Source of the DNA: Patescibacteria group bacterium
Lineage (GTDB): Bacteria > Patescibacteriota > Patescibacteriia > SG8-24 > DYFX01
Direction: 5' to 3'
Length of the DNA stretch: 64,000 nt
NCBI GenBank assembly: GCA_038062835.1
Contig: JBBTWH010000009.1
Coordinates: forward strand, 8,257 to 72,256
The notes under the pieces were generated by a model. The model saw nothing but the letters and a program-made list of their open reading frames with translations, was not told the origin of the DNA and did no database searches. The translations under genes were made by a program, and so were the position numbers. Position 1 is the stretch's first letter; every line of letters begins with the position of its first letter. Positions 31,309-50,067 of this stretch are shown here, piece after piece.

Positions 31309-31521
31309 ACAAGGCCATCTTACACGAACGCAAGGCGAACGAGTCAAACACGAAGCTCCCCGGCTGCACGGGGAGCTTCGCGATGTTTTCCCCAACAGGA
31401 ACACTGACCTGTCCTCTGTTGGGTAAAGATGATGGGGCCGTCCTGCCGCGCGACCGTAACTCCCGGGAGGCTGGAACTGTTCGCCTTCATCATACCACGA
31501 AAAAAGGCCTGACCGAGGAGG

Positions 31522-32093: not shown

Positions 32094-32168
32094 CGGAATG
32101 TAGCTCAGCGGTAGAGCGCTCGCTTCGGGTGCGAGAGGCCGCAGGTTCAATCCCTGTCATTCCGACCA
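32094..32168 (+). tRNA. tRNA-Pro (anticodon CGG)
   Basis: Acceptor CGGAATG/CATTCCG. D-arm GCTCAGCGGTAGAGC. Anticodon loop TTCGGGT with G37. T-arm GCAGGTTCAATCCTGT (wobble). CCA is encoded. Confidence 0.85.
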
Positions 32169-33606: not shown

Positions 33607-33608
33607 CG

Positions 33609-33665
33609 AAAAAAGGTTTGAGGCTTGAGGATATGAGGTTTGAAACCGGGCGTCAAGCCTCAACG
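33609..33665 (-). terminator. long imperfect inverted repeat / terminator (GGTTTGAGGCTTGAGG..CCTCAACGCTCAAACC + T6 on the minus strand)
   Basis: A 16-bp arm repeated with a 2-nt transposition. An A6 tract on the plus strand gives a T-tract on the minus strand just after the pilin genes. Confidence 0.5.
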
Positions 33666-33680
33666 CTCAAACCTCAATCC

Positions 33681-34184
33681 TTACCTCTGGACCGTGATCG
33701 TCGAGACCCGTTCGGGATTGCAGGATCCGACCGTGATGCGATTGTTCGTCGACTTGTTCACGTAGTAGCCGGTCTTGGTCGCATCATAGGTGACGACGCC
33801 GTTGGTGCCTTTCGGATCGACCGGCATCGAGGAGATGTATTCGTCCACGAGCGGCGACGAGAGGTTCAGGCAGGCGCCGAGCGTCGTACCCGCCGGGGCG
33901 CAGCCGGTGTTGCAGCCGGAGCCTGAGGTGCCGAGCACCTGCGCGGTCGAGGCGTCGCTGTCGATGCCCGCTGGCACGGCACCGACGTTGTCCGACATGT
34001 AATTCAGGATGGCGTTGAGCACCGAATAGACCTCACCCGCCCGCCGCGCGTCGCGCGCCTGAGAAAACCGCTTGGGCGGGTCCACGGCGACCAAAATAAT
34101 GGCCGCCAAGATGGCGATGATGCCAATGACAAGGAGTAATTCAATCAGGGTGAAGCCCTGTCGAACACGCCGTGAAAGCGCCAT
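33681..34184 (-). CDS. type IV pilin (major pilin-like), prepilin with class III signal
   Basis: MALSRRVRQG|FTLIELLLVIGIIAILAAIILVA: the Gly-Phe cleavage site, Glu+5 and a hydrophobic alpha1-N helix. Confidence 0.85.
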   Translation of the reverse strand: MALSRRVRQGFTLIELLLVIGIIAILAAIILVAVDPPKRFSQARDARRAGEVYSVLNAILNYMSDNVGAVPAGIDSDASTAQVLGTSGSGCNTGCAPAGTTLGACLNLSSPLVDEYISSMPVDPKGTNGVVTYDATKTGYYVNKSTNNRITVGSCNPERVSTITVQR

Positions 34185-34228
34185 TCTGGTGGGTTAAGGA
34201 AAGGCCGACTCGTCCCGAGATCAAACGC

Positions 34229-34807
34229 CTAGCGCTTGATCTTGATGCTCGGAGTCGTGATGTTGTCCTCGGACTCGGGGTTGCAGGCGCCGACCTCGAT
34301 GCGGCCGTTGGTCGAGCGCTTGATGTAGTAACCCGTCGCATTATCGTCGTACGTGTCCGTGTCGTTCGTACCGCGCGGATCGACCGGGATGGATGAGATG
34401 TACTCGTCGACAAGGGCCGTGTTCGTCGCCACGGCGATGATATGCGTCGCCGTACCCGCTCCGGTCAGGTGGTTCGGGCAGAGCGTGGTTCCCGTGATCG
34501 GACGGATGTCGAGCGTGAGGTTGCCGGTGCCGTTGTTCTCTCCGATGACGAACGGGACGTTGGCCGTCGCCGAGGAAATCTGCGTCGGCAGCTTGCCCTT
34601 GTAGTCGACCGTGTAGTTCAAGATGGCGTTCAAGATGGCGTTGGCTTCCGCGTAACGGCGGGCGTTGCGGGCCTGTTTGAGGCGCTTGGCAGGATCCACG
34701 GCGACCAAGATGATGGCAGCGAGAATCCCGATGATGCCGATGACGATCAGGAGCTCGATCAGGGTGAAACCCTTGGCACCATGATTCTTAATGGAAAGAC
34801 GGGACAT
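34229..34807 (-). CDS. type IV pilin paralogue
   Basis: MSRLSIKNHGAKG|FTLIELLIVIGIIGILAAIILVA. Shares the C-terminal motif LVDEYISS.PVDP.GTN...YD...TGYY with the downstream pilin. Confidence 0.85.
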   Translation of the reverse strand: MSRLSIKNHGAKGFTLIELLIVIGIIGILAAIILVAVDPAKRLKQARNARRYAEANAILNAILNYTVDYKGKLPTQISSATANVPFVIGENNGTGNLTLDIRPITGTTLCPNHLTGAGTATHIIAVATNTALVDEYISSIPVDPRGTNDTDTYDDNATGYYIKRSTNGRIEVGACNPESEDNITTPSIKIKR

Positions 34808-34851
34808 ATCGGATCGCTTGTGGATAAAAATGATGCGTGTAATTCATTATA

Positions 34852-36972
34852 TCACAGGGCTTCCGGCAGTACGTCTGCGATGGCCGTAAGGCGTATTTCT
34901 CCTTCGGCGGCATCGCCGCCAAGGGACGCTTCAATGTCCCGGAACGCGTGCTTCGTGCCTTGCGCCGGCTCCGGCAATGCGCTGCGAAGCAAGATTTCGG
35001 CGTCGGCGATCTCTATGGCTGAAGAACGGGCCAGGACGACGGCATGCGCGCTGAAAGAACCGACAGGCTCTCCGACGACCGGCGCCTCAAGGTACCGGAT
35101 TTCGAAGATTTCGAAGGAATCCGCGACCAGAATCGCCCCTTCTCCGGCCTTGGCGGCGGCCGCGCTCTTGAGCGTCTCCTCCGCCTCGGATTCGAACATG
35201 CTTCGAAGCGAGGCTACGTCCTCTTCCGTGAACGGAGCTCCGGACACGGTCATGCCGCCCCGCGTCGGCTCGGACGTCTCGCCATATATGGCTTTCTGGA
35301 CGGCGACCGAAAGGCCAGGAATCGTGAAACGTCCCACGGGAACGTCCCCCTGCGCTCCCGACTGGTCGGCGGTCATCGCGGCCGAAACTCGGCCGCGCGC
35401 CGGGACGAAGACTCGGCTGTCCAGACGGAAGGTCACGCCGCCCTCGGAGAGCAAGCGCGTCGTGGCGACGAGCGTCTGGCCGTTGCCGCTCTCGTTGATG
35501 ATCAAGATAGTGCCCTTGGCGTATCCGGACGTCTCCTCGCCCGGGCGATCGACCGTCACGCGCAGCTCAGCTTCGACTTCGATGTCGGTCACGGCCAGGA
35601 CTCGCGGGTCGGCAGACGTGGCCTCGCCGATTTCAGCCGTGACCTCAAGCGGGATCGCGGACGACGCCGCTTGCGGGGCTTGAGTATCGGCAGGCGCGGC
35701 GCCGCGCATACGGAAGGACGCGAACCAGGCCCCGACGGCGAGCGTCAATACGGCCGCGACGGCGGCCGCCAACTTGAGCCATGTCGGCATATGACGCGCG
35801 CCTCCCCGCAGAGGCGCGATCCGGCGGGGACCGGCAGGGCGCGGCAGCTCGGCTGAATGGCCCTGGGCACCGGCCGAAAGCAGGTTGATGTCGGAGAACT
35901 TGCGGACGCCGAGGCCTCGCATCGAAAGCCCGACGGCGGTCGTCGCCAGGACGCCGCGCTCGCGGAGATTCAGCTTCTCCAGCAGAGGATCGAGCTCGAG
36001 TCCGGACCAAGGGTCCGCGTGCTCGACGCGCTGGGTACGGGACGGCGAGGAGAGCTTGCCGGATACGTATTCGACGAGCCCCGGCATCAGCGTCGAGCCG
36101 CCGCACATCACGATGCGGGAAATCGGGCGTCCGGACTTCGCTTCGTAGTATTCACGGGCGGCAAGGACGTCCTTGGCGAGACTGTCGGCGGTGTCGCGCA
36201 TGGCCTTCTGCGCCTTGAGGTCGAACTCGCCGATGAGCCCCTGATTGCGCTTCAGCGAATCGGCGTCTTCGACCGTGATACCGAGGGCGCGCGCGAGCGC
36301 CTGCGTGAAGGCGTCCCCGGCGGTCTCGAGCGCCTCGGAGAACTGGATGCCGCTGCGGTCGAAGACCGAGATATTGGAGACGCGCGCGCCGACATCGACG
36401 AACATCACGGGCTCCGCCTCGTTCGGCAGGAGCGTCGCGCGGGCGATGGAAGCGGATTCGTTCTCGACGGCCTCGAGCGAAAGGCCGGAGGCCGCGAAGA
36501 GGTCGAGATAGCTTTTCAGCGTGTCCTTGTGGACCGCCGCGTAGTAGATGTCCTTGCGGTCGGGGCGCTGGCCGATGACGGCGTAGCCGGAGACCATTTC
36601 GTCGTGGCGGTACGGGAAATACCCGTCCGCCTCGATGGCGAGCGAGCGTCCGAGTTCCGCCTCGTCGGCGACGCGCGGGACTTCGAAGATGTGGCTGTAG
36701 ACCTGCGACTCCGGCAAGGCGAAGACGACGCGATCGATGCCTTTCGGCAGAGGCGGCGTCATCTTGTCAGCCAGGAGCTTGCGGAGCGCGAGGCTCGCGA
36801 CGTCTCGGCGTTCCACGTAGCCGTCGACGACGGCGCCCGGCGGCAAGGTGGTGCGGCCGTAGGAAGCCACGGCGAGGCGATCGCCGCGGCGCACCATGAA
36901 AACGGCCTCGATCGAATGATCGGAGATGTCGAGACCGATCGCCGGTTTTTGAAACATGGCCATGGCGTTCAC
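34852..36972 (-). CDS. pilM: type IV pilus assembly protein PilM fused to a TM segment and a large C-terminal periplasmic domain (PilN/O-like)
   Basis: Actin-like ATPase fold at the N-terminus (IGLDISDHSIEAVF...VMCGGSTLMPGLVEYV). TM helix WLKLAAAVAAVLTLAVGAWF. About 300 aa of extracytoplasmic domain. Confidence 0.8.
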   Translation of the reverse strand: MNAMAMFQKPAIGLDISDHSIEAVFMVRRGDRLAVASYGRTTLPPGAVVDGYVERRDVASLALRKLLADKMTPPLPKGIDRVVFALPESQVYSHIFEVPRVADEAELGRSLAIEADGYFPYRHDEMVSGYAVIGQRPDRKDIYYAAVHKDTLKSYLDLFAASGLSLEAVENESASIARATLLPNEAEPVMFVDVGARVSNISVFDRSGIQFSEALETAGDAFTQALARALGITVEDADSLKRNQGLIGEFDLKAQKAMRDTADSLAKDVLAAREYYEAKSGRPISRIVMCGGSTLMPGLVEYVSGKLSSPSRTQRVEHADPWSGLELDPLLEKLNLRERGVLATTAVGLSMRGLGVRKFSDINLLSAGAQGHSAELPRPAGPRRIAPLRGGARHMPTWLKLAAAVAAVLTLAVGAWFASFRMRGAAPADTQAPQAASSAIPLEVTAEIGEATSADPRVLAVTDIEVEAELRVTVDRPGEETSGYAKGTILIINESGNGQTLVATTRLLSEGGVTFRLDSRVFVPARGRVSAAMTADQSGAQGDVPVGRFTIPGLSVAVQKAIYGETSEPTRGGMTVSGAPFTEEDVASLRSMFESEAEETLKSAAAAKAGEGAILVADSFEIFEIRYLEAPVVGEPVGSFSAHAVVLARSSAIEIADAEILLRSALPEPAQGTKHAFRDIEASLGGDAAEGEIRLTAIADVLPEAL

Positions 36973-37024
36973 GCCAAAAGACTGGGGCTGAGTCCCCGTG
37001 AGCCTATCATACCACGAACCTGCC

Positions 37025-37435
37025 TTAATCCGCCTCCCTCCAGGAGTTGATCTTGATTTTTTTGGCGTTGGCCGAGTTGTTGGACTTGATGGTCACGTTG
37101 GCGTCGACGATGCGGACGGCGTACCGATACTCGCCCTGGCCGCGGACCAGTCGATCGTTCCCGCCCAGGTTCGTGACGGAAATCACGCATTCGCCGCCGT
37201 CCAAAGAGAACGAGCCGCCCGCGTAAGCCGCGTTCATCTTGAGCTGTTCGAGGCCCTCCTCGACGCAGGCGTCGGCCAGGCTGAACGCGATCTCGCCGTC
37301 CTCGACCACGCCGGTCAGGACCGCTTCGTCGTTGCCGACTGCGGATATGGTGATGCCGATCGAGATGAGCGTCACCATGACGATCAGCACGGTGATGAGG
37401 GCGACGACGCCTTTGGGAGCGTTGGGGTGCGTCAT
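37025..37435 (-). CDS. minor pilin-like / pilus assembly protein (non-canonical N-terminus)
   Basis: N-terminal hydrophobic helix PKGVVALITVLIVMVTLISIGITIS without Glu+5. Lies in the pilus operon. Confidence 0.5.
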   Translation of the reverse strand: MTHPNAPKGVVALITVLIVMVTLISIGITISAVGNDEAVLTGVVEDGEIAFSLADACVEEGLEQLKMNAAYAGGSFSLDGGECVISVTNLGGNDRLVRGQGEYRYAVRIVDANVTIKSNNSANAKKIKINSWREAD

Positions 37436-37436
37436 A

Positions 37437-37949
37437 TCAATCTTTGCGGATGACGGCGGTGCCGCTCGCCGCCGCCACGTACGTGAAAGCCTGGTCGGGA
37501 TTGTCGGAAGCGAAGGCGAGCGTGATGACGGCGGTGACGGCGTTGTTGTTGCCGCCGAGGTTATCCTTGGAGAAGCGCAGGGAGGTGACGTTCACGCGCG
37601 GGGTCGTGAGCGGCGTCGCCGGCCCGCTCCCCTCCTTCATGCGCACGGCACCGCCGGAGAGGTCGAAGACGGTGGGCGTGTTCGAGGCGCTCGGCATATC
37701 GACGGACAAGACGCCGCTGTCGCTGTTGAACGTCGAGGCGCCGACGTTCAGCTTCGACGCCTGGCGGACCGTGCGCAGCATGCGTTGCATGCCGAAGCGC
37801 ATGTTCTGCTCGACCTCGGCGATGACGGCCGTCTTCGCGCGGGTGCGGATGACGTCCAGCGCGAAGAGCGTGATCGCCGAGATGACGATCGAGATGAGGG
37901 CGAAATAGATGATGAATTCCAGCAGGGTGAAGCCCTTGGGATGACGCAT
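37437..37949 (-). CDS. type IV pseudopilin (minor pilin)
   Basis: MRHPKG|FTLLEFIIYFALISIVISAITLFAL is a class III signal. Confidence 0.75.
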   Translation of the reverse strand: MRHPKGFTLLEFIIYFALISIVISAITLFALDVIRTRAKTAVIAEVEQNMRFGMQRMLRTVRQASKLNVGASTFNSDSGVLSVDMPSASNTPTVFDLSGGAVRMKEGSGPATPLTTPRVNVTSLRFSKDNLGGNNNAVTAVITLAFASDNPDQAFTYVAAASGTAVIRKD

Positions 37950-37950
37950 A

Positions 37951-40900
37951 TCAGCGGTAGGTCACGGTGATGTCGTCGAGCGTCGGCGTCACCGAGGTAT
38001 CGCCCGTCGCGAGCAGGGCGCGGTACTGGAGATAGCGGCTGACGGGGGCAGTGATGGCCGTGCCGGTGGCGACGGTCATCTCGGAGGTGAACGGCGACCA
38101 GCCGCCGTCCGGCGTCGGCGTGTTGCCGGTCCGGATGGCGACGGTCAGCGTGGTCATGGCCGGAATCGACCTGTTCCAAAACGAGACCATCGGCGTCGAG
38201 GTCGCCACGTCCATGTCGAGAATGGAGGAGAGGAAGGTACCGGTGGGCTGGTAGGTCGGCGGGTCTTTCAATAAGATTCCGAGCTTGCCGCAGATCCAAC
38301 CGTCGGTCGGGGCTTCGACGGTGATGCCGTAGAGGTGGCGGGTGGTCGGTGACGTGAAGCTCGTCCAGTTCGCGCCGTCCCACTGAATGATGGCGCCGGA
38401 GTCGCCGTTCGCCCAAGCTTCCGAGGAGGATCTCGCCTCCACCGCGTTCAGTGACGAGACGACGGGGCTCGTGACGGTCGACCAGAGCGTGCCGTTCCAG
38501 CGGACGATGACGCCGTTCGCGCCGACCGCCCAGCACGAGGTCGAAGACAGGCAATGGACGGCATTCAGGCGGCTGGCCGTCGGCGAGGTTTGCGTCGCCC
38601 ACAACGCGCCGTTCCAGCTGACGATGGTGCCTGAATCGCCGACGGCCCAACCAGTGACGGCATCGACCATCCAAACGCCGCGAAGCGCGTTGCCGGTCGG
38701 AGAAATCGCCGGAAGCCAGGCGACGCCGTTCCAATGGACGATAGTCCCGCCCTGGCCGACGGCAGCGCCGAAGGCGGATGAGGTCATCGATACCGAGAAG
38801 AGGTCGTTGCCCGTCGGACTGGACTGCACGGCCCAGGGCGCGTTGTTAAAGCGGATGATTTCTCCTTGATTGCCGACAGCGAAGGCGAGCGCCGACGAGA
38901 CCGCGTCGACGCCGTTCAGGTTACGGATCGTCGGCGAGGACGTGGCGGACCACGTGAGTCCGTCGTAGTGGATGATGGTGCCGACGCGGCCGACGGCCCA
39001 GACGTCCGAAGCGCCGGTGCCGTCGGTGTCATAGAGGTCCTGCGCGGTGACTGCGCTGTGGATCATGCGCACTTCCTGCAGGATGGAGGTCTGATACGAC
39101 TGCGAGTTGGTGAAGGTCACACGGTATTGGAGATAGCGGTTCGGCGGCGCCGTGATGGTCGCGCCGCCCGCGTCCGAATATTCGGAACTCCAGGCCGACC
39201 AGCTGCCGTCGGGCGTCGGCGTGGGGCCGCTGCGCACGGCCAGGGTCAGCGACGCGAACGGCTGGGTGGTGTAATCCCAGGCGATGGAGTTCCAGACGGC
39301 GGTCGAGGAGCCGCTGTCCACGACGGTGCTCGTGAAATACGCCGGCGACGTATAGAAGGCGGTGTAGTGATAGATGGCGCCGCCCTCGCCGACGGCCCAT
39401 CCATCCGTCGGCGTCATCAGGAAGACGCTCTGCACCAGCGGGTTGGACTGGTTGGCGAAGACGTACTGGGACCAGACGGCGCCGTCCCAATGCAGGAAGG
39501 TCTGTTCGATGCCGACCGCCCAGCACTCGGTCGAAGAGAGGCAGTGGACGTCGCGAAGCTCGTTGGGCGTATTGCTCGTCACGATATTCCATGCCGTGCC
39601 GTTCCAATGGCGCGTCATGCCGCCTGCGCCCACGGCGACGGCGAAGCTCGCGTCCACCATCGAGACGCCGTAGAAGGCGTTGGTGGTGCCCGATGTCATC
39701 GTCGACCAGGTCGTGCCGTTATATCGGATGATGGTGCCGTTACGGCCGACGGCGATGCAGTCGCTGGCGCTGGCGCAGCTCACGCTCTCCAGATCCTTGT
39801 TGACGGGACTCGTCATCGTCGCCCAGCTGGCGCCGTTCCACCTCAGGATCACGCCTGACTTGCCGACGGCGAAGGCCAGGCTGGCCGAGATGACGTCGAC
39901 GGCGAACAGGTCGAGGCCGGTCGGGCTCGAGAAGTTCGCCCAGCTGGCGCCGTTCCAACGGATGATGCGACCGTTCAGGCCCACGGCCCAGGCATCGGAG
40001 GTCGACGAAAAGTCGACGCCCTGCAAGGTATCGGTCGTCGGCGAGGCGAAGGTCGACCAGTTGGAGCCGTCGAAGCGCAGGATGTTACCGCCCTGGCCGA
40101 CGGACCACCCGTCGGAGGCCGAGGTCAGGACGGTATCGTACATCGTGGCGGACGTCGGGGCGTCGTAGGTGATCGTGATGTTGTTGAGCGACGGCGTGAC
40201 CTGCGTGTTGGTCGTCGACATCGTCAGGCGATACTGGATGTACCGGCTGTCGGCGTTCGCGATGACCGACCCGAACGGATCCGTCACTTCCCCGCTGAAG
40301 GCGGTCCAGCTGACGTCCGGCACGGCCACGTTGCCGGTGCGGACCGCGACCGTGAGGTCCGTGCCGCTGTCGAGGTCCTCGTTCCAGAAGAGCCGGTCCC
40401 AATTCGCGCTGGCCGTCGCGTCGAAGACATTCGAGGTGTAGGTGCCGGAGGTCGGATAGTTGGAACCGTATTTCAGGAAGGTCGGACCGGCGCCGACGGC
40501 GTATCCCTCGCCGGCCGACACCATATCGACCGCGTTGAGCTGGTTGACGGTGGGCGAAGCGACCGACGCCCAGCTCGTCCCGTTCCAATGGATGACCGCG
40601 CCAGTCACGCCGACGGCCGTACAGAACGACGCGGAGACGCAATCGACGTCAAGAAGGCTTACGGCCACCGGAGACGACACCGTGTTCCAGGCCGTGCCGT
40701 TGAAGCGCCGGATGACGCCGTTGTTGCCGACGATCCAGCCGTCGGTCGCCGAGACCATCTCGACGCCGTTCCATTGATGCGACCCAGTATCCGTATGAAG
40801 GCTCCAGGCCGTGCCGTTCCAGCGCCTGATCTCGCCAGCGGTCCCGACGACCCAGCAGTCCGAGGCCGTGACGCAGGTCACCGCGTACCACACTTGGCTG

Positions 40901-42168
40901 CCGGTATCGGTATGCGCGTTCCAGGCGGTGCCGTTCCAGCGCCTGATCTCGCCGCCGTTTCCGACGATCCAGCCGTCGGTCGCCGAGACCATCCGGACGG
41001 ACTGCCATTGCTGGTTGCCGACGTCGGCGAACTGGCTCCAGGCCGTGCCGTTCCAACGATAGATCTTGCCGGAGTCGCCGGCCGCCCAGCAATCTGAGGT
41101 CGTACGGCAGTGGACGCCGAAGACCTCCTGGTTGTTGAGGTCATGGGTCAGGACCCAGCCGGTGCCGTCCCAGCGATAAAACCGTCCGGATTGCCCGACC
41201 GCGCGGCCGTCTATCGACGACAGCATCGATATCTCGTACAGGGATCCGGCGCCAGGAGCCGGGGCCAGCGTGCCCCAGCTCGTGGAGTTGGCCAGGATGA
41301 CGCGCCCGAGGTCGCCCGTGTCGGCCACCACCGTGCCGCTGAAGGAACCGTCATTGAAATGCGTGTGGGTGGTCTCGAAGAAGCTCTTGCCGGCGATGAT
41401 CTGGATCCATTCCGGATCGCCGGTTCCCGTGACCGACGACGGCGTGCCGCTGCCGCTCACGACGGTGTCCTGGAAGGCGCCGGGGCCGAAGTCGGTATCG
41501 GTCGTGTGGGTGACGAGAAGCCCCTCAGCCGGCGTCCAGGTCTTCACGCCCGTCGTCGAGAGCTGGAGGCTGGCGCCGTCGCCGGTGCCGTAGACTTCCG
41601 TGGCGTTGTGCGTGCCAGCGTTGAAATCGACGTCGGTCGTCTGCTTCCAGTCATAGACGCCCCAGTCGGTCAGATACATCGACCGCGTGACGTCGCGCGG
41701 GATGGCCAGGACGCCGGAGTTCCAAAGGACCGCCACGACGACCTTGCGCGTGCGCGGGTCGACCGTGCCGCCGGACGCGACGATGACGTTCAGGCCGTCC
41801 CGTTCCACTTCGGTGACCGTCACGGTCCGCGTGTAGGTGCCGTCGATCTGGTCGGAGGCTCCCAGGAAGACCCAGTTGCCGCTTCCGTCCTGCGCGAGGC
41901 CGTGCGTGCCGAGCGCGAGGTCGCTCCAGCGGTTCTCCTTGATGGCGCGCGCCGCCTCAAGGCCCTGCGTGGCGAGGAACGTGGCGCGCGTGCGGTCGGC
42001 GCCCGATGCCGCCGACGCCAGCGGGTTCAGCACGAGCAGGATGACGCCGCTCGCGAGCACGGCGAAGACGCCGACCGCGATCAGCACCTCCATGACGGAT
42101 TGTCCCGCGTAAAAGCCCATCCGGGGCTCACGCGGCGATGCGCGCTTATTCTGCCACCACGCGGCCAT
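37951..42168 (-). CDS. giant prepilin-anchored adhesin (1405 aa): N-terminal pseudopilin-like helix plus three tandem modules of a Ycf48/BNR-like beta-propeller and a roughly 110-aa RYLQYR domain
   Basis: N-terminus RMGFYAG|QSVMEVLIAVGVFAVLASGVILLV (Gly, then Glu+5). About 18 blade repeats of the form GWAVG..G.I.RWNGT.W. Three conserved inter-propeller domains ending ..RY[IL]QYR..L....TP.L..IT[IV]TY. Start could instead be the internal MGFYAG at 42120. Confidence 0.75.
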   Translation of the reverse strand: MAAWWQNKRASPREPRMGFYAGQSVMEVLIAVGVFAVLASGVILLVLNPLASAASGADRTRATFLATQGLEAARAIKENRWSDLALGTHGLAQDGSGNWVFLGASDQIDGTYTRTVTVTEVERDGLNVIVASGGTVDPRTRKVVVAVLWNSGVLAIPRDVTRSMYLTDWGVYDWKQTTDVDFNAGTHNATEVYGTGDGASLQLSTTGVKTWTPAEGLLVTHTTDTDFGPGAFQDTVVSGSGTPSSVTGTGDPEWIQIIAGKSFFETTHTHFNDGSFSGTVVADTGDLGRVILANSTSWGTLAPAPGAGSLYEISMLSSIDGRAVGQSGRFYRWDGTGWVLTHDLNNQEVFGVHCRTTSDCWAAGDSGKIYRWNGTAWSQFADVGNQQWQSVRMVSATDGWIVGNGGEIRRWNGTAWNAHTDTGSQVWYAVTCVTASDCWVVGTAGEIRRWNGTAWSLHTDTGSHQWNGVEMVSATDGWIVGNNGVIRRFNGTAWNTVSSPVAVSLLDVDCVSASFCTAVGVTGAVIHWNGTSWASVASPTVNQLNAVDMVSAGEGYAVGAGPTFLKYGSNYPTSGTYTSNVFDATASANWDRLFWNEDLDSGTDLTVAVRTGNVAVPDVSWTAFSGEVTDPFGSVIANADSRYIQYRLTMSTTNTQVTPSLNNITITYDAPTSATMYDTVLTSASDGWSVGQGGNILRFDGSNWSTFASPTTDTLQGVDFSSTSDAWAVGLNGRIIRWNGASWANFSSPTGLDLFAVDVISASLAFAVGKSGVILRWNGASWATMTSPVNKDLESVSCASASDCIAVGRNGTIIRYNGTTWSTMTSGTTNAFYGVSMVDASFAVAVGAGGMTRHWNGTAWNIVTSNTPNELRDVHCLSSTECWAVGIEQTFLHWDGAVWSQYVFANQSNPLVQSVFLMTPTDGWAVGEGGAIYHYTAFYTSPAYFTSTVVDSGSSTAVWNSIAWDYTTQPFASLTLAVRSGPTPTPDGSWSAWSSEYSDAGGATITAPPNRYLQYRVTFTNSQSYQTSILQEVRMIHSAVTAQDLYDTDGTGASDVWAVGRVGTIIHYDGLTWSATSSPTIRNLNGVDAVSSALAFAVGNQGEIIRFNNAPWAVQSSPTGNDLFSVSMTSSAFGAAVGQGGTIVHWNGVAWLPAISPTGNALRGVWMVDAVTGWAVGDSGTIVSWNGALWATQTSPTASRLNAVHCLSSTSCWAVGANGVIVRWNGTLWSTVTSPVVSSLNAVEARSSSEAWANGDSGAIIQWDGANWTSFTSPTTRHLYGITVEAPTDGWICGKLGILLKDPPTYQPTGTFLSSILDMDVATSTPMVSFWNRSIPAMTTLTVAIRTGNTPTPDGGWSPFTSEMTVATGTAITAPVSRYLQYRALLATGDTSVTPTLDDITVTYR

Positions 42169-42616
42169 AGGCGTTGATGATGACGGTGCGCGTCGCCGAA
42201 TCGACGCCCGTCAGGGTGATGGAACCTGTCGAAGCGGCCGCGCCGTGGAAGCGGGTGAAGGTCACGTCGCAGCCGCCGCCGACATCCACGCCGGTGACGG
42301 TCACGTTACTCGGCAGATCGAAGGTGTCGAGCGTGTCAGTGGCCGAGGTGAAGCTGGCGCCGCGGAAGATGTGGTACTTGGTCGTCGGCAGGGCGCAACC
42401 GTCCGTCTCCGAGAAGTGGACGCCCCATCTGTCGCCGAAGTGGCCGGAAAGCGCCTGCGTCTCGGCGCGGCGGATGACGTCGACGACGCCGGTCAGTCCG
42501 TCTTCCAAGGCGTTGCGCGTCTGGAACGAATACAACGGGACCGTCGTCACCGCTACGATGACGCCGAAGAGAGCGACGACCAGGACGAGTTCGAGCGCCG
42601 AAAATCCAGCGCGCAT
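42146..42616 (-). CDS. FimT/GspH-like pseudopilin
   Basis: MRAG|FSALELVLVVALFGVIVAV plus the GHFGDRWGVHF motif typical of GspH/FimT. Confidence 0.75.
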   Translation of the reverse strand: MRAGFSALELVLVVALFGVIVAVTTVPLYSFQTRNALEDGLTGVVDVIRRAETQALSGHFGDRWGVHFSETDGCALPTTKYHIFRGASFTSATDTLDTFDLPSNVTVTGVDVGGGCDVTFTRFHGAAASTGSITLTGVDSATRTVIINAYGRVVAE

Positions 42617-42617
42617 G

Positions 42618-43826
42618 CTAAAGGCGTTCGATATTGCCGATGAAGTTGTAGATCGGCGTGATGATGGCGACGGCGATGTAGGCGACGGTCAGGCCGATGA
42701 CGATGAGCAGGACCGGCTCGAGGATCGTCGAGAGGTTCTTGGTGGTCACGTCGACCTCGTCCTCGTAGAACTCCGCCAGGTACTGGAAGGTCTCCTCGAG
42801 CTTTCCGCTGCGTTCGCCGACGGCGAGCATCCTGGTGCAGATCGACGGGAAGAGCCGCGGGAACTCCTCAAGGACGGTCGAAGCCGGCACGCCGGTCTCC
42901 GTCCCCTGCTTCACCCGCAAAAGCGCCTTCTTGAAGCGGGCGTTCCTGAGGGTGTTCGAGACGATCTCGAAGGCGTCGCCGATCGTGATGCCGGACTTGA
43001 GGAGCGTCGCCATCGTGCGGGCGAACATCGCCAGGTTGAAATTGCGCGCCAAGAGGCCGAAGACGGGAACCCTGAGCAGCACGCCGTGGCTGAACGGACG
43101 GACGGGCTTCCAGCCCAGGAATTGGATCAGTCCGAAAATCCCGGCGATCACGCCGATCGTGAACGGCACGCCGTAGGCGACCATGAAGCGCGAGAAGCCG
43201 ATCATCAGGCGGGTCGCCAGCGGCAGCTCGACCGAGATGGAATCGAAGAGGCCGATGACGCGCGGCAGGACGAAGAGCGAAAGGCCCATGCCGATGCCGG
43301 ACGCCGCGACCAGCACCAGGACCGGGTAGATCATCGCGCCGCGGATCTTGCGCTGGAGATCGTAGCTCTTGGTCAGCTGCAGGGCCAGGTCGTCGAGGCT
43401 GCGCTCGAGCGTGCCGCTCGATTCGCCGGAGCGGACGGTGGCGATGAACAGCTCCGAGAAGATCTTAGGATATTGAGCGAAGCCCTCCGAAAGCTGGCGG
43501 CCGCCCTCGACGGCGACGAGCACGCCCATCAACGCCTTGCGGAAGCGTCCCTGCGCCTGCTCTGCCAGCACGCGCACCGCCTCGTCGATCGGCAGTCCTG
43601 CCTTGATCATCAGCGACATGTGCTTGGCGAACGTGACCTTCATCACGTTCGGCACCCAGCCGATGCCGAGCAGGTTCACGAAATTTCCGCCGGCGTCGCG
43701 GCGCAAAGACACCACGAGCAAACCCGCGGCGCGGATCTGCTCGGCGGCCTCCTCGGAGGAACGCGCGTCGATGACGCCGTTCTCGATCTTGCCTTGCGGG
43801 GTCGTGGCGCTGTATTTGAAACGCAT
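42618..43826 (-). CDS. pilC: type IV pilus assembly platform protein PilC (GspF family)
   Basis: Two GspF repeats and three TM helices. RBS AAAGGAGG. Confidence 0.9.
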   Translation of the reverse strand: MRFKYSATTPQGKIENGVIDARSSEEAAEQIRAAGLLVVSLRRDAGGNFVNLLGIGWVPNVMKVTFAKHMSLMIKAGLPIDEAVRVLAEQAQGRFRKALMGVLVAVEGGRQLSEGFAQYPKIFSELFIATVRSGESSGTLERSLDDLALQLTKSYDLQRKIRGAMIYPVLVLVAASGIGMGLSLFVLPRVIGLFDSISVELPLATRLMIGFSRFMVAYGVPFTIGVIAGIFGLIQFLGWKPVRPFSHGVLLRVPVFGLLARNFNLAMFARTMATLLKSGITIGDAFEIVSNTLRNARFKKALLRVKQGTETGVPASTVLEEFPRLFPSICTRMLAVGERSGKLEETFQYLAEFYEDEVDVTTKNLSTILEPVLLIVIGLTVAYIAVAIITPIYNFIGNIERL

Positions 43827-43847
43827 GTTCCTCCTTTATGCGGGGCT

Positions 43848-45551
43848 TCAGTCGTGCATGGTGCGGAGCAGCTCCTCGACGGTCGTGAGGCCGTTCAAGA
43901 CCTTGCTGATGCCGTCCTCGAGCATGGTGGTCATGCCCTGCGCTATGGCTTCGCGCTCGATGTCGTCGGCGTTGGCGCGGCTCATGATGAGCTTCCGGAT
44001 CGTCTCGTTCATCTCGACGAGTTCGAAGATGCCGATGCGGCCGATGTACCCGGTGTGCCGGCAGAGCTCGCACTTCGCGCCGCTGTAGATCGTCAGGCTC
44101 TTCTTCTTGCCGAAGAGGCGCCGGGAAAGGTCTTCAGAGACGCCGGCTGCCTTCGCCTCGCTCATGCTCATCGTACCGCTTTTCCGGCATTTCGGACAGA
44201 TGCGCCGGACGAGACGCTGGGCGATGATGAGATTGATGGACGACGCGATCAGGAACGGCTCTACCTTCATGTCCAAAAGGCGCGGCAGGGTCGTGGCCGC
44301 GTTGTTGGTGTGCAGCGTGGAGAGTACCAGGTGGCCCGTCATCGCCGAGTTCACGGCGATGCCGGCGGTCTCCTCGTCGCGGATCTCGCCGACCATGATG
44401 ATGTCCGGGTTCTGGCGGACGATGGCGCGCAGCCCGGCGGCGAAGGTGATGCCCGTCTTGGGGTTGACCTGGATCTGGCTGACGCCGGCGATGTCGTATT
44501 CGATCGGATCCTCGATGGTGGTGATGTTCACCTCCGGCGTGTTGAGGATCTTCATCATCGCGTAAAGCGTCGTCGTCTTGCCCGAGCCGGTCGGGCCCGT
44601 CGACAGGATCATGCCGAACGGCTTCTTCATCGCGCGCATCGTCTTCTCGACGTCCGGGTCCGAAAGGCCGATGGACTCGAGATAGAAGTGCTTGCCGCGC
44701 TCGGTCAGCAGGCGCATCACGACCTTCTCGCCTTCGATGATCGGCACGATGTTGATGCGGACGTCGACCGTCTCGCCTTCCAGCAGGGTGCGGATCTTGC
44801 CGTCCTGCGCCGCGAAGTGCTCATCGGTGCGCAGGCGTCCCATGATCTTGAGGCGCGTGACGATCAGGTCGTGCATGTACTTCGGATACCGGACGATGTC
44901 GTGCATCAGGCCGTCGATGCGGAAACGAACCAGCGCTTCCTTCTCGCGCGGCTCGATGTGCATGTCGGAAGAACCGGCCTGATACGCGTAGAGCAGGAGC
45001 GTATCGACGATCTGGACGATCGGCAGCTCCTTCAGGGCGTCTTCGGGGGAGATGTCCGGCTTCTCGGCGAGCTTGCGCTCGATCTCGGAAATGATGGCCT
45101 GGAAGACGCTCTTGATGTCCTTGCGATAGCGGGCGGCCACCAGTTCGATGTCGCTTCGGGTCGCGTAGTAGAGCCGGATTTCCTTGCCGCGAAGCTTCTT
45201 GCGCAGGGCGGCGACGGCTTCCAGGTTCGCCGGGTCATTGACGGCGACGGCGACGGCTTCTTCGACGCGCCGGAACGGCATGACCCAGCTGCGCTTGACC
45301 ATCTCGACCGGGATGAGCCTCAGCACATCCTCGGGAATCGCCTCGTTGCGGAGGTTGATGTACGGGACCTTGTAGATGTCGGCCATCAGCCGGCCCATGT
45401 TCTCGTCGGTGATGATGTTCCGTTCGACGAGAAAATCGACCAGCGGCTCGCCGCGGTCGCTGGCGCTCTGATACGCGGCTTCCAGCTTCTCGGCCGGTAA
45501 GACATCCAGCTCGCTGAGCGCCGATTTCAATGTGTCGTTGGAAATCGCCAC
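43848..45551 (-). CDS. pilB: type IV pilus assembly ATPase PilB (GspE family)
   Basis: N-terminal GSPII domain. Walker A GPTGSGKTT. Asp/His boxes. C4 zinc motif CPKC..CELC. GTG start with RBS GAAGGAGG. Confidence 0.92.
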   Translation of the reverse strand: MAISNDTLKSALSELDVLPAEKLEAAYQSASDRGEPLVDFLVERNIITDENMGRLMADIYKVPYINLRNEAIPEDVLRLIPVEMVKRSWVMPFRRVEEAVAVAVNDPANLEAVAALRKKLRGKEIRLYYATRSDIELVAARYRKDIKSVFQAIISEIERKLAEKPDISPEDALKELPIVQIVDTLLLYAYQAGSSDMHIEPREKEALVRFRIDGLMHDIVRYPKYMHDLIVTRLKIMGRLRTDEHFAAQDGKIRTLLEGETVDVRINIVPIIEGEKVVMRLLTERGKHFYLESIGLSDPDVEKTMRAMKKPFGMILSTGPTGSGKTTTLYAMMKILNTPEVNITTIEDPIEYDIAGVSQIQVNPKTGITFAAGLRAIVRQNPDIIMVGEIRDEETAGIAVNSAMTGHLVLSTLHTNNAATTLPRLLDMKVEPFLIASSINLIIAQRLVRRICPKCRKSGTMSMSEAKAAGVSEDLSRRLFGKKKSLTIYSGAKCELCRHTGYIGRIGIFELVEMNETIRKLIMSRANADDIEREAIAQGMTTMLEDGISKVLNGLTTVEELLRTMHD

Positions 45552-46391: not shown

Positions 46392-48901
46392 TTATGGCGC
46401 CAGTGTACCGCCGTCCTCCGAGACAGGCAAGGCCTTGGGAGCGTTCGGAAGCGCGATGTTGAAGGTCGTTCCCTTATTCTCCTTCGACGTGAACCAGACG
46501 CGGCCGCCGGAAAGCTCGATGATCGTCTTGACGAAGTAAAGCCCCAGGCCGGTACCGACCGTCTCCAGCGCGGCCACGTTCTCGCCGCGAAAGAACTTGG
46601 CGAAGACGCGGTACTGCTGGCCTTCCGGAATGCCTAAGCCGGTGTCCTTCACGCGGAAGACGGTCTCCCCGCCTTCGACGAAGACGTCGAGGGCGATCGA
46701 GCCGCCTTCAGGCGTATATTTCACGGCGTTGCCGATGATGTTCGAAAATGCCTGGCCAGCCAGATTGGGATCGGCATAGAACGTAGCGACGTCCTTCGCG
46801 ACCGCCTGCGTGAACGCCAGCTGCCGTTGGCGGATGAGCGGCGATAATTCCTTGACCGCCGCCTCGACGAAGGCGCGCGCGTCGACGTGCTCCGGGACGG
46901 GCTTGACCCGTCCGGCCTCGATCCTCGAGATGTCGAGCAGGCTGCCGACCAGCCTGACCATGCGCACGACGGACGTCGACAAGTCGCTCAGATACTCCTT
47001 CTGCGTCGGCTTGAGCGGGCCGGCGTCACCCTCCAGAAGCAAGTCAAGGAACCAGCGCATCGCGGACAACGGCGTGCGCAGCTGGTGCGACGCGATAGAG
47101 ATGAAATCCGATTTTTGGCGGTCGATCTCGCGCTCGACCGTCACGTCGCGGAACGCGGCGACGATGCCGGTCGTGCGGCTATCCTCGTCGAGATACGGCG
47201 CGACGGTGCCGGAGACCGGCACGAAGCTGCCGTCCGCGCGGGCGAGCCGCAGGCGCTCTCCCAGCGCGCCGGCGCGGCGCGGGCCGCGACGAAGGCGTCC
47301 GTCCGCATCACGACGTCATCCTCGCGGAACAGCCGTAGGACGCGTTCGATGGGCTGCCCGATGACGTCCCTCGCCTCCATGCCGATGATGCGCGCGGCGG
47401 TGGGGTTGCATCGGAAAATCTTCCCGTCCTTGCCGGAGGCCACCACGCCTTCCGCGAGGGCGTCGAAGCTGGCGGATTCGCGCCGCCGCTCGGATTCGAT
47501 CTGCCGCTTGGACTCCTCGACGTCCTCCAGGAGGTTCATCAACGCCGTACGCATATCGACCAGATCACGGTTCAGTCGACGCTGAGTCACGGCATCATCC
47601 TCGGCACGGGCCTTCGCGATCGCGGTGGCTTTCAAGGATTCGGACAGGTTTTCGTTGGTCTTTTTCAGCTGCGCGCTCTCGCGCGCTCGGTTGCGGCTGG
47701 AGATGAAGACGTAGGTCCCGGTGATCGCCATGGCCACGGTCAGGGTCGCGTGCTCATTCGTCCAGCCCAGTCGCGCGCGCAGGCCGGAAGGCACGAATAC
47801 CTCGAAGAGGAAAAAGGCGTAGTAGGCCGCCACGGGATAGAGCGTCCATATCGGCGACAAGACGAGCGATCCGGCGAAGATGGTCACGAACGTCAGGTAG
47901 GTGAACGGGCTCTCGATGCCTCCGGTGGCATGCATCAGCAGGCTGAGGCTGACGACCACGGACGACAGCGGCAGCAGGTAGGTGCGCAGGGTGGCTTTGG
48001 CGGCGGGAATCAGCTGGTAGCTGACGGTGGTCAAGGCTGCGATGACGAGGATCGACGGGAAGTATTCCGCCGTATCGATTCCTCCATACCTGCCGTACAC
48101 GGCAGAGACGGCTACCACTCCCCAGACGTTCATCTCGCCGAGCTGCTGGTGGCGGATAATCGCCAGCCGGCTCCCATCGAGGCCAGAGGCGTCTACCGCC
48201 CGCGTCTGGTTATCGGAGGCGTACCAGCTCAGGATCAAGACGCCGAAGAGCGCGCAGATGGACATGGCTCCTATCGTCGTCCCGTCAGCCGAGGCCGCCA
48301 GGGCGGCGGCGGAACCGGCCAAGATCGCGACGCAGACCCTGAACCGGCCGAAGACGGAACGCCATTCGCAGAATGCGATCAGGAGGCCGCTGAGGAACGA
48401 CAGCGTGAGAGGCACGGAAATAGACTGGCCGCCGGCCGGACCTGAGGCGGCGGAAGAAGGAATCGCGAGCGCGCCGATCCAGGCCGCGATAGGGACGAGC
48501 ATGTAAGCGGCGGCGACCGCAAGCGCGGCGAGGTTGATTTCTGCGGCCGGGACCTCGGCTGGGTCGCCCTTGGTCCGATGCGCGGCATAGACCAGCACGG
48601 CCGCGAGCACCGCAGCCGAGACGACGGCCCGATCGTGCCCTGACCGCAGCTCCGGCATGAAAAACGAGTACGCAAGCACGGCCGCGACCGCCGCCGCCGC
48701 GACCAACCGCACGGACTCCATGCGCCTGTAGCGGTGCGAAGCGAAGGCTAGGCAGCCTGCGGCGACGGCGGTTACCGCGAAGAGGGCGCCGATCGCGTCT
48801 CGCGACGAAGCGGCGTCAAGGCCCGAAGCCGCCGCCAGGGAGAACATCTGGAACCCGGCGAGCGTCGTCATCCAATCGGTACGAAAACGGAAGCGTTTCA
48901 T
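46392..48901 (-). pseudogene. membrane sensor histidine kinase (polytopic N-terminus, coiled coil, PAS, HisKA, HATPase) interrupted by an apparent -1 frameshift near 47255-47285
   Basis: ORF 47141..49066 (start MKRFRFRTDWM at 48901, about 10 TM helices, coiled coil, then the start of a PAS domain) continues in another frame as ORF 46392..47222 (..RADGSFVPVSGTVAPYLDEDSRTTGIVAAFRDVT..HQLRTPL..HATPase). The switch occurs in GC-rich gccgcgccggcgcg. Confidence 0.7.
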
Positions 48902-50067
48902 GGTCCTTGTCGCTTCGACAGCAGTTCCTTCAGCTCTTTCATCCTGACTTCGCGCCCGACCATCAGCCTGGCCATGCGTTCGACGGCATCGCGCTCCGTG
49001 AGCGTCTTCCGGAACAGGAGCGCGGCGTTCAAGAGCGTCGCCATGAAGCCCGTCAGCAGCTCGCAATAATTGACGTCCTCTTCGTCATACTGGCCCTTGC
49101 GGCGATTCACGAGGCAGAGCACGCCGATCGAGGCGTCTCGCACATGCAGCGGCATGACGAGCATGTCGCGGATGCGCGCGTTGCCGACGAAGCGTTCGAT
49201 GCCGCCGGCCTTTCCGTCGAAGACGCGCGGAATCCCCGTCTCGATGATGCCGCGGAGGATACTCATGTTTTCCTCGACGGACATCAGGTCGCGTGCGTAG
49301 AAATCGGCGTCGGCGCCCTCGCCGACGCGCCTGAGCTCCTTGCTGTCGCCTTCAAGCACGAAGACGGCGTGGCGCTCGGCGTCGATGGCGTCCGATACGA
49401 TGCCTCCCGCGCGCGAGGCCAGCCGGTCGAGTTCCGAAGTGAATTCGCTCAGCCGCACCAGCATATTTATGACCTGGAGCTGATCGAGGCGATCCGAGAG
49501 ATCGCGCGAAAGCCGGTCGGTCTTCTCGAAGGCCTGACGCAGTCCGCGCGTCACTGACACGAGGCAGGCCGAAGCGGCCGCGAATATCAGGAGCTGCAGG
49601 GTGAACTCCCACGACATGAACGGGCCGCGGACCCAAGCCGCCGCGTGAAGGAACAGCATGGCCAGCAACGAAAAGGCCGATTCGGCCAGCACGACGTTCT
49701 CGTGCAGCACCAGGGCGGAAGCGAAAAGAGGTATGAAGTACAGATAGCCGAGAGTCCCGGCCATTTCGGGCAGGACGTAAATGAAACCCGTCAACAAGAC
49801 GACCATCGCCAAGCTGACGACGAGCGCCTTATCCTCCTTGACGAATCGGATCGGCCCTTCGGAGGATTCCGGCATCAGGCGTTGGAAGACGACGTTGGCG
49901 ACGGCAAGCAGCGCGACGGAGAGGATAAGTCTGGCCTGCCGCCCCGGTACGCCGGCTTGGGGAAGAAAGACGATGAGCGACCCGAGCAGCAGCGTCAGAA
50001 ACCAGCCTGCGGCCTCGAAGCCGTAACCGGAACGGACGATCTTCTTCGTGCGCGAGGACGCGGTCAT
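48898..50067 (-). CDS. membrane-bound GAF-domain sensor protein (no output domain)
   Basis: About six TM helices followed by GAF (DASIGVLCLVNRRKGQYDEEDVNYCELLTGFMATLL). ATGA overlaps on both sides. Confidence 0.65.
   Translation of the reverse strand: MTASSRTKKIVRSGYGFEAAGWFLTLLLGSLIVFLPQAGVPGRQARLILSVALLAVANVVFQRLMPESSEGPIRFVKEDKALVVSLAMVVLLTGFIYVLPEMAGTLGYLYFIPLFASALVLHENVVLAESAFSLLAMLFLHAAAWVRGPFMSWEFTLQLLIFAAASACLVSVTRGLRQAFEKTDRLSRDLSDRLDQLQVINMLVRLSEFTSELDRLASRAGGIVSDAIDAERHAVFVLEGDSKELRRVGEGADADFYARDLMSVEENMSILRGIIETGIPRVFDGKAGGIERFVGNARIRDMLVMPLHVRDASIGVLCLVNRRKGQYDEEDVNYCELLTGFMATLLNAALLFRKTLTERDAVERMARLMVGREVRMKELKELLSKRQGP

Follow-up and report, generated by a model that had tools for sequence, protein, structure and literature searches.

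Type IVa pili (T4aP) of monoderm bacteria, for example Streptococcus sanguinis, and the type IV pili (T4P) described for genomes of the candidate phyla radiation (CPR, Patescibacteria) by Meheust et al. 2019 (PMC6744442) have PilB, PilC, PilM, GFxxxE pilins and several minor pilins in common. Their genes are clustered and a secretin or any other outer-membrane part is missing. All of this applies also to the locus described here, which consists of nine co-directional genes on the minus strand at positions 33681-45551 (coordinates exact) of a 64,000-nucleotide stretch of DNA, called the window in the following, from a Patescibacteria group bacterium (assembly GCA_038062835.1, contig JBBTWH010000009.1, positions 8,257 to 72,256). 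It is a real type IV pilus gene cluster that looks complete, and it is ordinary for Patescibacteria apart from a PilM fusion and a pilin with three predicted propellers. Most likely the genes form an operon for an adhesive, T4aP-like pilus, and the cell, a member of the Patescibacteria (CPR; Paceibacteria-like), has a monoderm-type envelope that lacks a secretin. The whole system is not new, as secretin-less T4P loci are known and expected in CPR genomes.

The differences to the described systems concern a few parts. Compared with the T4aP of monoderm and CPR bacteria no separate PilN and PilO are present in the locus; instead, PilM is fused to an INLL peptide, a membrane helix and an unrelated domain. 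In addition, PilT and PilD are missing from the locus and a two-component system is embedded upstream. The T4P-2 of Nanosynbacter lyticus TM7x (PMC11623550 / PMC12206443) is likewise a CPR pilus locus without a retraction ATPase. Its minor pilin PilX2 is needed for host binding, not for filament extrusion, and PilX1 contains a jelly-roll-like domain (PMC11623550). PilX2 and the 1405-aa protein of our locus are both large minor pilins with a non-canonical signal peptide and seven-bladed beta-propellers, predicted in our case; the protein described here differs by its 1405 aa, by three propellers and by a module of ~110 aa after each of them. Furthermore, PilM2, PilN2 and PilO2 are separate genes in TM7x, in contrast to the fused chain found here. 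The initial annotation of this DNA had regarded a PilM-N fusion together with giant minor pilins as characteristic of ultrasmall episymbionts. Such a fusion is no general hallmark of them, as seen from TM7x, the one studied case, with its separate PilM, PilN and PilO genes (PMC11623550).

GspL/PulL from type II secretion systems (T2SS) has the same topology as the PilM fusion, with an actin-like domain in the cytoplasm, one helix in the membrane and an extracytoplasmic domain, and it is surrounded by genes in the same order E-F-H-I-J-K-L; PulL is described as a PilM-PilN fusion (PMC10191384). The protein of our locus differs from GspL/PulL in that it is PilM-type by profile and carries a PilN-type INLL peptide in cis, and in that its outer domain has a baseplate-J-like barrel and no detectable ferredoxin-like PilN/GspL fold. 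PilY1, the tip adhesin of T4aP in diderms, has a C-terminal beta-propeller. It resembles the 1405-aa protein in bearing a propeller, in the position of its gene among HIJK-type minor pilins and in its presumed location at the tip. Yet PilY1, itself no pilin, docks onto the complex of minor pilins, whereas here three Ycf48-like propellers are predicted as a covalent part of a prepilin.

In the order of transcription the nine genes encode PilB (567 aa), PilC (402 aa), proteins of 156, 1405, 170 and 136 aa, the PilM fusion (706 aa) and two pilins of 192 and 167 aa. The GC content at third codon positions (GC3) is 0.81-0.92 across all nine genes and of the coding type; the genes are real. At least six of the nine are already annotated by NCBI, namely PilB, PilC, both pilins and the 170-aa pilin with an exact match and PilM within its family. 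The initial annotation had proposed a type IV pilus locus with PilB, PilC, PilM and two paralogous pilins, and the profile check confirmed this assignment: T2SSE, T2SSF, PilM_2 and N_methyl were all matched by the translated open reading frames (ORFs). Its number of eleven genes has to be corrected to nine. The sole extra ORF, 73 aa at 36969-37190, is spurious; it overlaps out of frame inside the 136-aa gene and is absent from the NCBI calls.

An extension ATPase, a platform protein with two T2SSF domains and pilins with class III signal peptides (Gly at -1, a hydrophobic helix and Glu at +5) place the locus in the type IV filament superfamily. PilB, identical to NCBI MEK7545911, contains the Walker A motif GPTGSGKT at residue 319 and the pair CPKC/CELC at residues 452 and 494. 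The NCBIfam models GspE and PilB score equally on this protein (530 bits each, both under the equivalog cut-offs), and PilC reaches 296 bits with the GspF model and 247 bits with the PilC model. The 192- and 167-aa pilins are paralogues with 49% identity and both are candidates for the major pilin; the N-terminus of the former is GspG-like and cluster members of the latter are named PilA by JGI. Analysis of the prepilin motifs by profiles revealed N_methyl matches for the 167-, 192- and 170-aa proteins and a TIGR02532 match for the 156-aa protein, but none for the 136-aa protein; the motif of the 1405-aa protein was read by eye.

One unusual component is the PilM fusion. About 38 full-length homologues with 41-73% identity were found, and the AlphaFold2 model, based on 34 homologues, has a mean predicted local distance difference test (pLDDT) value of 87. 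The actin-like PilM domain, one of the components of a T4aP, scores 131.9 bits on TIGR01175 (cut-off 133) and matches PilM of P. aeruginosa in the PDB with E=1.5e-24 and the entries 5EOU/5EOX with E~1e-24. It is followed by the motif FSDINLL, which in the alignment corresponds to the PilN peptide ...ARINLL in 5EOU, an engineered chimera of PilM and PilN, and F359 and L365 are nearly invariant in the PilM fusion family. Because of this alignment and the near-invariance of both residues we conclude that the protein has two elements of a PilN, namely the peptide that binds PilM and the membrane anchor. A disordered linker (residues 368-395) leads to the membrane helix, whose flanks show pLDDT values below 50.

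The identification of this protein as a PilM-N fusion by the initial annotation was correct for the PilM domain, the INLL peptide and the PilN-like membrane helix, but not for the 268-aa outer domain, which matches no PilN/PilO profile or fold. Pfam gave no match to PilN, PilO, T2SSM or GspL in the outer domain, also when the last 182 residues were searched with a threshold of E<=1, and the 50 best matches of a Foldseek search against the PDB include no chain of PilN, PilO, GspL or GspM. The PilN/PilO-like fold that the initial annotation had expected in the C-terminal part was therefore not detected by Foldseek in the AlphaFold2 model. Bitopic PilN and PilO proteins with ferredoxin-like domains, which also belong to the components of a T4aP, are not encoded in the locus.

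In the model, the outer domain is composed of a beta-rich part with a baseplate-J-like barrel and a subsequent alpha-beta-beta-beta-alpha-beta-beta subdomain. The top three PDB matches in Foldseek are the galactose-oxidase homologue GlxA from Streptomyces (E 1.4e-5 to 3.2e-5), and seven of the top ten matches are baseplate chains (E 6.5e-5 to 6e-3, probability 1.0). The matches of the baseplate-J/gp47 type originate from wedge proteins of phages and tailocins (Mu, phi812, 7-7-1, A-1(L), phiCD508 and diffocin). In the BFVD database 29 matches at E<=1e-3 were found, and most of the named ones are baseplate-J-like. The common core is a barrel of ~100 residues with a root mean square deviation of 3-5 A; the TM score is only ~0.3, which means a shared barrel and no match of the whole domain. 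The Pfam family Baseplate_J (PF04865) is hit by the window protein below the cut-off (E=0.016, 14.9 bits, cut-off 21.1), and many homologues have a precomputed PF04865 match. The barrel core superposes with the phage baseplate wedge proteins J, gp47 and gp6 with a Foldseek probability of 1.0, but only about a third to a half of the outer domain aligns, and the protein is a membrane-anchored cellular protein and not part of the baseplate of a contractile tail. According to the model, the fold of the outer domain includes a baseplate-J-like barrel. None of the papers in the literature searched connects baseplate-J with PilM.

The domain fused to PilM is CPR-specific and does not look like PilN or PilO. 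A possible but rather doubtful explanation is that it represents an unrecognised part of the CPR machine that replaces the PilN/PilO module and couples the PilM ring to the cell wall or S-layer. The barrel may then share ancestry with baseplate-J, and the exchange of the domain for wall-binding SH3 domains in a related locus (L013, see below) would reflect anchoring. Slightly more doubtful is a highly diverged domain of the PilN/PilO type, with residues ~583-706 as a ferredoxin-like dimerisation module and the barrel inserted before it. In the model, residues 583-706 show an order of secondary structure elements similar to that of the alpha-beta-beta repeats in PilO/PilN, and the INLL peptide and the membrane helix are PilN-like; the profile and Foldseek searches described above gave no PilN or PilO. 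Only the last subdomain could be such a diverged PilN/PilO domain.

A profile of the outer domain detected 7809 cluster representatives at E<=1e-3 (clusters at 50% identity), 1227 of them at E<=1e-30. About a third of the best family matches are PilM fusions of 670-1196 aa with a linker of variable length, and the remainder are mostly standalone proteins of ~380 aa composed of a membrane helix and the outer domain. Every name on the members of this family reads 'hypothetical protein', and the organisms given with them belong to Uhrbacteria, Magasanikbacteria, Kuenenbacteria, Parcubacteria, Paceibacterota and Patescibacteria; the single exception is likely mis-binned. Loci that were compared with the window are designated by L numbers (L001-L008, L011, L013-L017). 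Six of them were sampled for the standalone form (L006, L007, L008, L015, L016, L017), and in all six a threonyl-tRNA synthetase (ThrRS) gene is located nearby. In one half (L007, L008, L017) a ~320-aa protein and a PilB-like ATPase are encoded ahead of the gene, in the other half (L006, L015, L016) it follows DnaE.

The former arrangement is a recurrent three-gene unit in CPR (L007 5201-9149, L008 5305-9146, L017 3173-7167) that consists of the ~320-aa protein, a PilB-like T2SSE ATPase and the ~380-aa protein with helix and outer domain. These units are situated near ThrRS, with no PilC or pilins adjacent. A comparison of the ~320-aa neighbor with PilM by hhalign gave a probability of 0.1%, so that it was rejected as a cryptic PilM. 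Fusions of PilM with a membrane helix and another domain are common among the relatives of the 706-aa protein. Sister fusions of 514-636 aa (L013 10001-11911; P0040-P0049) contain SH3_3/SH3_4 after the PilM domain and no baseplate-J-like domain; L013, the one such locus that was read, is an operon with the same gene order.

The other unusual component is the giant 1405-aa protein. It begins with a prepilin leader, followed by a pilin-like module of ~170 aa, a linker domain of ~130 aa and three propeller units. The leader, read by eye, has the form ...AG then QSVMEVLIAV, with Gly at its end and Glu at +5. A Gly-ended leader followed by QS[VT][MI]EVLIAV is present in four of four orthologues, and the distant orthologue in L013 shows the canonical KKG then FSLVEIILAV at the same position. 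Judged by these sequences the protein is a genuine prepilin. There is also a weak match to PilV (TIGR02523, E=0.023). The start M1 (MAAWW...) is conserved in the orthologues, whereas the NCBI call in GCA_964357585.1 uses Met17 and results in 1388 aa (window 42120-42168); since the orthologues keep both the MAAWW start and the leader, the reading with 1405 aa is the better one. Compared with L002 and L003, the leader of the window protein has an insertion of 12 residues. The first ~160 residues are shared with small CPR pilins from Peregrinibacteria and Parcubacteria. A search with the N-terminal pilin module found nine proteins only, all of them small CPR pilins, and does not show how far the giant form is spread.

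Each of the three units contains repeats of the form G..G.I.RWNGT.W, six clear ones of 39 aa and one degenerate, and each propeller is followed by a C-terminal module of ~110 aa ending in RY[LI]QYR. A profile made from five orthologues matched in the PDB the seven-bladed propellers of Ycf48 (5OJP, 2XBG, 5OJ5) with E values from 3.7e-10 to 3e-9, and a faint PSII_BNR match was found for the orthologue in L014. The propellers of the three units are thus predicted to be Ycf48-like and seven-bladed. The prepilin-anchored adhesin proposed by the initial annotation is supported as far as the prepilin leader is concerned, and its role as a tip adhesin is putative by analogy.

Together with the 156-, 170- and 136-aa genes, the giant gene forms a set of four minor-pilin-like genes in GspH/I/J/K order. 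The 156-aa protein is conserved with 48-75% identity in L002-L005, the 170-aa pilin is identical to NCBI MEK7545907 (prepilin-type N-terminal cleavage/methylation protein), and the 136-aa protein, conserved with 48-73% identity in L002-L005, has the hydrophobic N-terminus KG then VVALITVLIV without Glu5. From its N-terminal segment, its place in the operon and its conservation the latter is a putative pilin-like protein in the GspK/PilX position.

Table 1. Positions in the window and supporting evidence for the pilus genes, their domains and the upstream signalling genes.
Feature	Coordinates	Strand	Evidence
PilB/GspE-type extension ATPase, 567 aa	43848..45551	-	T2SSE E=5.9e-122, N-terminal MshEN E=1.3e-15
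PilC/GspF platform protein, 402 aa, two T2SSF domains	42618..43826	-	T2SSF E=2.2e-59, two stretches
GspH/FimU-like minor pilin, 156 aa, signal MRAG then FSALE	42146..42616	-	TIGR02532 16.8 bits (cut-off 16.3)
Giant modular minor pilin, putative tip adhesin, 1405 aa	37951..42168	-	leader, pilin module, propeller repeats
Unit 1 (predicted propeller 1 + module 1), residues ~300-672	40153..41271	-	repeats, Ycf48 profile match
Unit 2 (predicted propeller 2 + module 2), residues ~673-1040	39049..40152	-	repeats, Ycf48 profile match
Unit 3 (predicted propeller 3 + module 3), residues ~1041-1405	37954..39048	-	repeats
Minor pilin, GspJ/PilW position, 170 aa, signal MRHPKG then FTLLE	37437..37949	-	N_methyl E=3.5e-6
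Small pilin-like protein, GspK/PilX position, 136 aa	37025..37435	-	N-terminal segment, operon position, conservation
PilM fusion, 706 aa: PilM domain, PilN-like peptide, disordered linker, membrane helix, extracytoplasmic domain	34852..36972	-	AlphaFold2 model
PilM actin-like domain, residues 11-357	35902..36942	-	Pfam PilM_2 E=1.3e-36
FSDINLL motif, residues 359-365, equivalent of the PilN N-terminal peptide (binds PilM)	35878..35898	-	alignment to 5EOU
Single transmembrane helix, residues 397-421	35710..35784	-	model helix; hydrophobic sequence WLKLAAAVAAVLTLAVGAWFASF
Extracytoplasmic (outer) domain, residues 439-706, 268 aa	34855..35658	-	own model pLDDT 93
Pilin, candidate major pilin, 192 aa, signal ...GAKG then FTLIE	34229..34807	-	N_methyl E=3.2e-8
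Pilin, candidate major pilin, 167 aa, signal ...VRQG then FTLIE	33681..34184	-	N_methyl E=1.1e-7
CheY-like single-domain response regulator, 129 aa	45597..45986	-	Response_reg E=1.2e-24; 45 nt upstream of pilB
CheY-like single-domain response regulator, 124 aa	45996..46370	-	Response_reg E=6.6e-26; syntenic in L002-L005
Sensor histidine kinase: polytopic membrane N-terminus, PAS, HisKA, HATPase_c	46392..49066	-	Pfam, two frames

The gene order is strictly conserved in four genomes of distinct species and reads histidine kinase, two response regulators, PilB, PilC, 156, 1405, 170, 136, PilM fusion, two to three pilins, exonuclease and RarA. Among these syntenic genomes the order is maintained down to 42% identity of PilM. 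In L013, with ~30% identity in the PilM domain, the order is response regulator, PilB, PilC, 153, 1259, 175, 124, PilM fusion and three pilins, and the fusion ends in SH3 domains. The fragment L014 contains the same pilus core. The kinase and both regulators were absent from the account given by the initial annotation. The gaps between pilB and the first regulator, between the regulators and between the second regulator and the kinase are 45, 9 and 21 nt. The 129-aa regulator is syntenic in L002-L005 with 84-87% identity, and a response regulator also precedes pilB in L013. Pfam detected HisKA and HATPase_c on 46392-47222 and PAS on 47141-49066, and the C-terminal part of the kinase is syntenic in L002-L005.

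Starting from PilB, the gaps between the pilus genes are 21, 1, -23, 1, 1, 52, 44 and 44 nt. The values of -23 to 21 nt within the block from PilB to the 136-aa gene are in favor of a pilus operon. Only one pair of genes overlaps (the 156- and 1405-aa genes, -23 nt), and not several genes as stated by the initial annotation. A search for terminator-like sites revealed 13 sites compared with 10.1 +/- 3.3 in shuffled sequence, hence no excess, and none in any intergenic gap; promoter-like sites were no more frequent than in shuffled sequence. The common direction of the genes is not distinctive, as nearly all genes between 21 and 64 kb are located on the minus strand. The single operon claimed previously is therefore plausible because of the small gaps and the lack of terminator-like sites between the genes.

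The origin of the DNA from CPR, a guess of the initial annotation, is corroborated by seven window proteins which are identical to NCBI entries in the range MEK7545879-MEK7545911 labelled '[Patescibacteria group bacterium]'. These proteins are encoded on a contig of 95,573 bp, whose name, Hain_H41_02um_R1_143, points to the Hainich groundwater CPR study (PMC8672522), and one syntenic relative is a metagenome-assembled genome (MAG) of Candidatus Paceibacter sp., phylum Minisyncoccota. Based on these protein identities the contig is assigned to Patescibacteria. The GC content of the window, 64%, is unusual for CPR, yet it is no evidence against a CPR origin. A non-CPR origin, considered because of this value and of relatives labelled 'Gammaproteobacteria' and 'Baltobacteraceae', was rejected because of the identical proteins from the Patescibacteria MAG and of the Patescibacteria names in the outer-domain family. 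Over 22.1 kb (window positions 24852-46966), 11 mismatches and one gap separate the window from L001 (a contig of GCA_964357585.1), which corresponds to 99.94% identity. This identity and the exact protein matches to the 95.6-kb Hainich contig indicate that the same population was assembled at least twice.

Scans of all sizeable ORFs of the window revealed no profile match to PilT, PilD, PilQ, PilN or PilO, and the genes called on the contig beyond the two window ends, where 5.4-9.6 kb were read on each side, gave none either. The initial annotation was therefore right that the window has no pilT, pilD or pilQ, and the same holds for these flanks. A prepilin peptidase with a Peptidase_A24 domain was not detected in window ORFs and flanks, and PilB is the sole T2SSE-family gene there, which leaves no candidate for PilT in this region. 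Absence of the secretin is the known condition in CPR, whose genomes encode PilB, PilC, PilM, PilN, PilO, PilT and PilD without PilQ (PMC6744442).

Several findings weigh against the interpretation as an adhesive pilus operon. Prepilin peptidase and retraction ATPase were not found in about 79 kb of the 95.6-kb contig, and as neither PilD nor PilT is present there, processing and retraction depend on genes outside the scanned stretch. The 156-aa protein matches Pfam GspH below the cut-off (E=0.0024, 18.8 bits, cut-off 21). The 136-aa protein has no match in Pfam or NCBIfam, which leaves its pilin status without profile support. In the giant pilin the residue at +1 is Gln and not Phe, and its tip location is putative. 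The outer domain is not exclusively a part of pili, because a PilB-like ATPase adjoins only three of the six standalone loci. Finally, the reading frame of the kinase switches inside the PAS domain near 47222-47300 (47141-47300, minus strand): frame 0 runs to '...TDAFVAARAA' and frame 2 resumes at 'LGERLRLARADGSF...'. This split may stem from an indel introduced during assembly in a GC-rich run, or the kinase gene may truly be a pseudogene.

A different function, a DNA-uptake (competence) pilus whose filament binds extracellular DNA and delivers it to ComEC, seems improbable to us. Type IV pili are reported to occur in CPR genomes together with ComEC and competence genes (PMC6744442, PMC8672522), the PilM of Thermus, a competence protein (2YCH), is a detectable homologue of the PilM domain, and directly downstream of the pilins a 3'-5' exonuclease with RNase-H fold and RarA are encoded, syntenic in L003-L005. 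However, Com-type pili are devoid of PilM (PMC10191384, Table 1), which is present here, and Pfam and NCBIfam scans found nothing in the pilus locus that resembles a DNA-binding pilin or ComEA/ComEC. A ComGA-GG set without PilM, PilN and PilO, as in a Com pilus, was not found, since the ComG equivalog scores are far under the cut-offs. Moreover, a 1405-aa minor pilin with three propellers is easier to read as an adhesin. Competence and adhesion are not mutually exclusive functions.

The pseudopilus of a type II secretion-like system, suggested by the order E-F-H-I-J-K-L then G-like pilins, which mirrors gsp operons (gspE-F-(G)-H-I-J-K-L), by the PulL layout of actin-like domain, membrane helix and outer domain (PMC10191384) and by the GspE and GspF scores of PilB and PilC, is highly unlikely, because the secretin GspD, GspC and GspM were not detected in the scanned window ORFs, the actin-like domain matches PilM_2 with no GspL/T2SSL family among the Pfam matches at E<=0.1, T2SS occur only in diderms (PMC10191384), components of an outer membrane are missing in CPR (PMC6744442), and the 1405-aa tip pilin argues for an extended filament.

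The exonuclease downstream of the pilins (PolB-exo-like, 33039-33656, minus strand) and RarA/MgsA (30046-31404, minus strand) keep their position in L003-L005, which may indicate either a functional linkage or only the synteny of close relatives. For a reduced genome, signalling genes are dense between 21 and 64 kb of the window. In addition to the kinase and the two CheY-like regulators upstream of pilB, this region encodes a second histidine kinase (53781-55034), a Ser/Thr kinase with TPR repeats (24327-25760) and GAF-domain proteins (22939-23595 and 48898-50130). A 1272-aa protein (4555-8373, minus strand) contains a C-terminal Peptidase_S74 intramolecular-chaperone domain (E=1e-12) as in endosialidase and tail-fibre proteins, and may be another large surface fibre of the same cell; it is preceded by a 168-aa protein without matches (8391-8897, minus strand). 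At the left window edge an 821-aa homologue of VirD4/TraG-like coupling proteins is encoded (L011 17337-19802, contig upstream, overlapping window ~1-1037), with DUF8128 and weak or faint matches to T4SS-DNA_transf, TrwB and TraG-D_C. The tRNAs supported by Rfam in the window are tRNA-Pro (32094-32168) and tRNA-Glu (24161-24239). A further tRNA-Pro(CGG) called by ARAGORN at 38047-38128 on the plus strand, antisense inside the 1405-aa gene, is below the threshold of the Rfam tRNA model and was discarded as a false positive.

Taken together, the adhesive pilus could be assembled as follows. A hexameric PilB would drive the PilC platform, which would polymerise the 192-aa GFTLIE pilin, the 167-aa one or both. 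HIJK minor pilins are known to prime assembly (PMC10191384), and a four-member complex in GspH-I-J-K order (156, 1405, 170 and 136 aa) would do so here. The 'I' member of 1405 aa would bring its three propeller-plus-module units to the pilus tip as an adhesin that probably binds glycans or the host surface, analogous to PilY1 in diderms and PilX2 in Saccharibacteria. The alignment subcomplex would be reduced to one chain of cytoplasmic PilM, tethered INLL peptide, one membrane helix and the CPR-specific outer domain. The latter may stand in for the ferredoxin-like domains of PilN/PilO, and its probable role is to oligomerise, to anchor the machine in the cell wall, or both. Assembly is probably controlled (gated) by the upstream kinase and the two CheY-like regulators.

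None of the variant features is categorically new, neither the PilM fusion with a baseplate-J-like outer domain nor the pilin with three predicted Ycf48-like propellers nor the embedded two-component system. Type IV pili are the leading candidates for the structures by which ultrasmall CPR bacteria find and hold their hosts, and experiments on this function come from Saccharibacteria only. Our data suggest that Paceibacteria-like lineages use a differently built machine which is conserved across several species and whose distinctive parts are a one-polypeptide alignment component, a tip pilin with three predicted propellers and an attached two-component system. The propeller modules would be candidates for host recognition, and the outer domain may be a CPR-specific part of the cell envelope.

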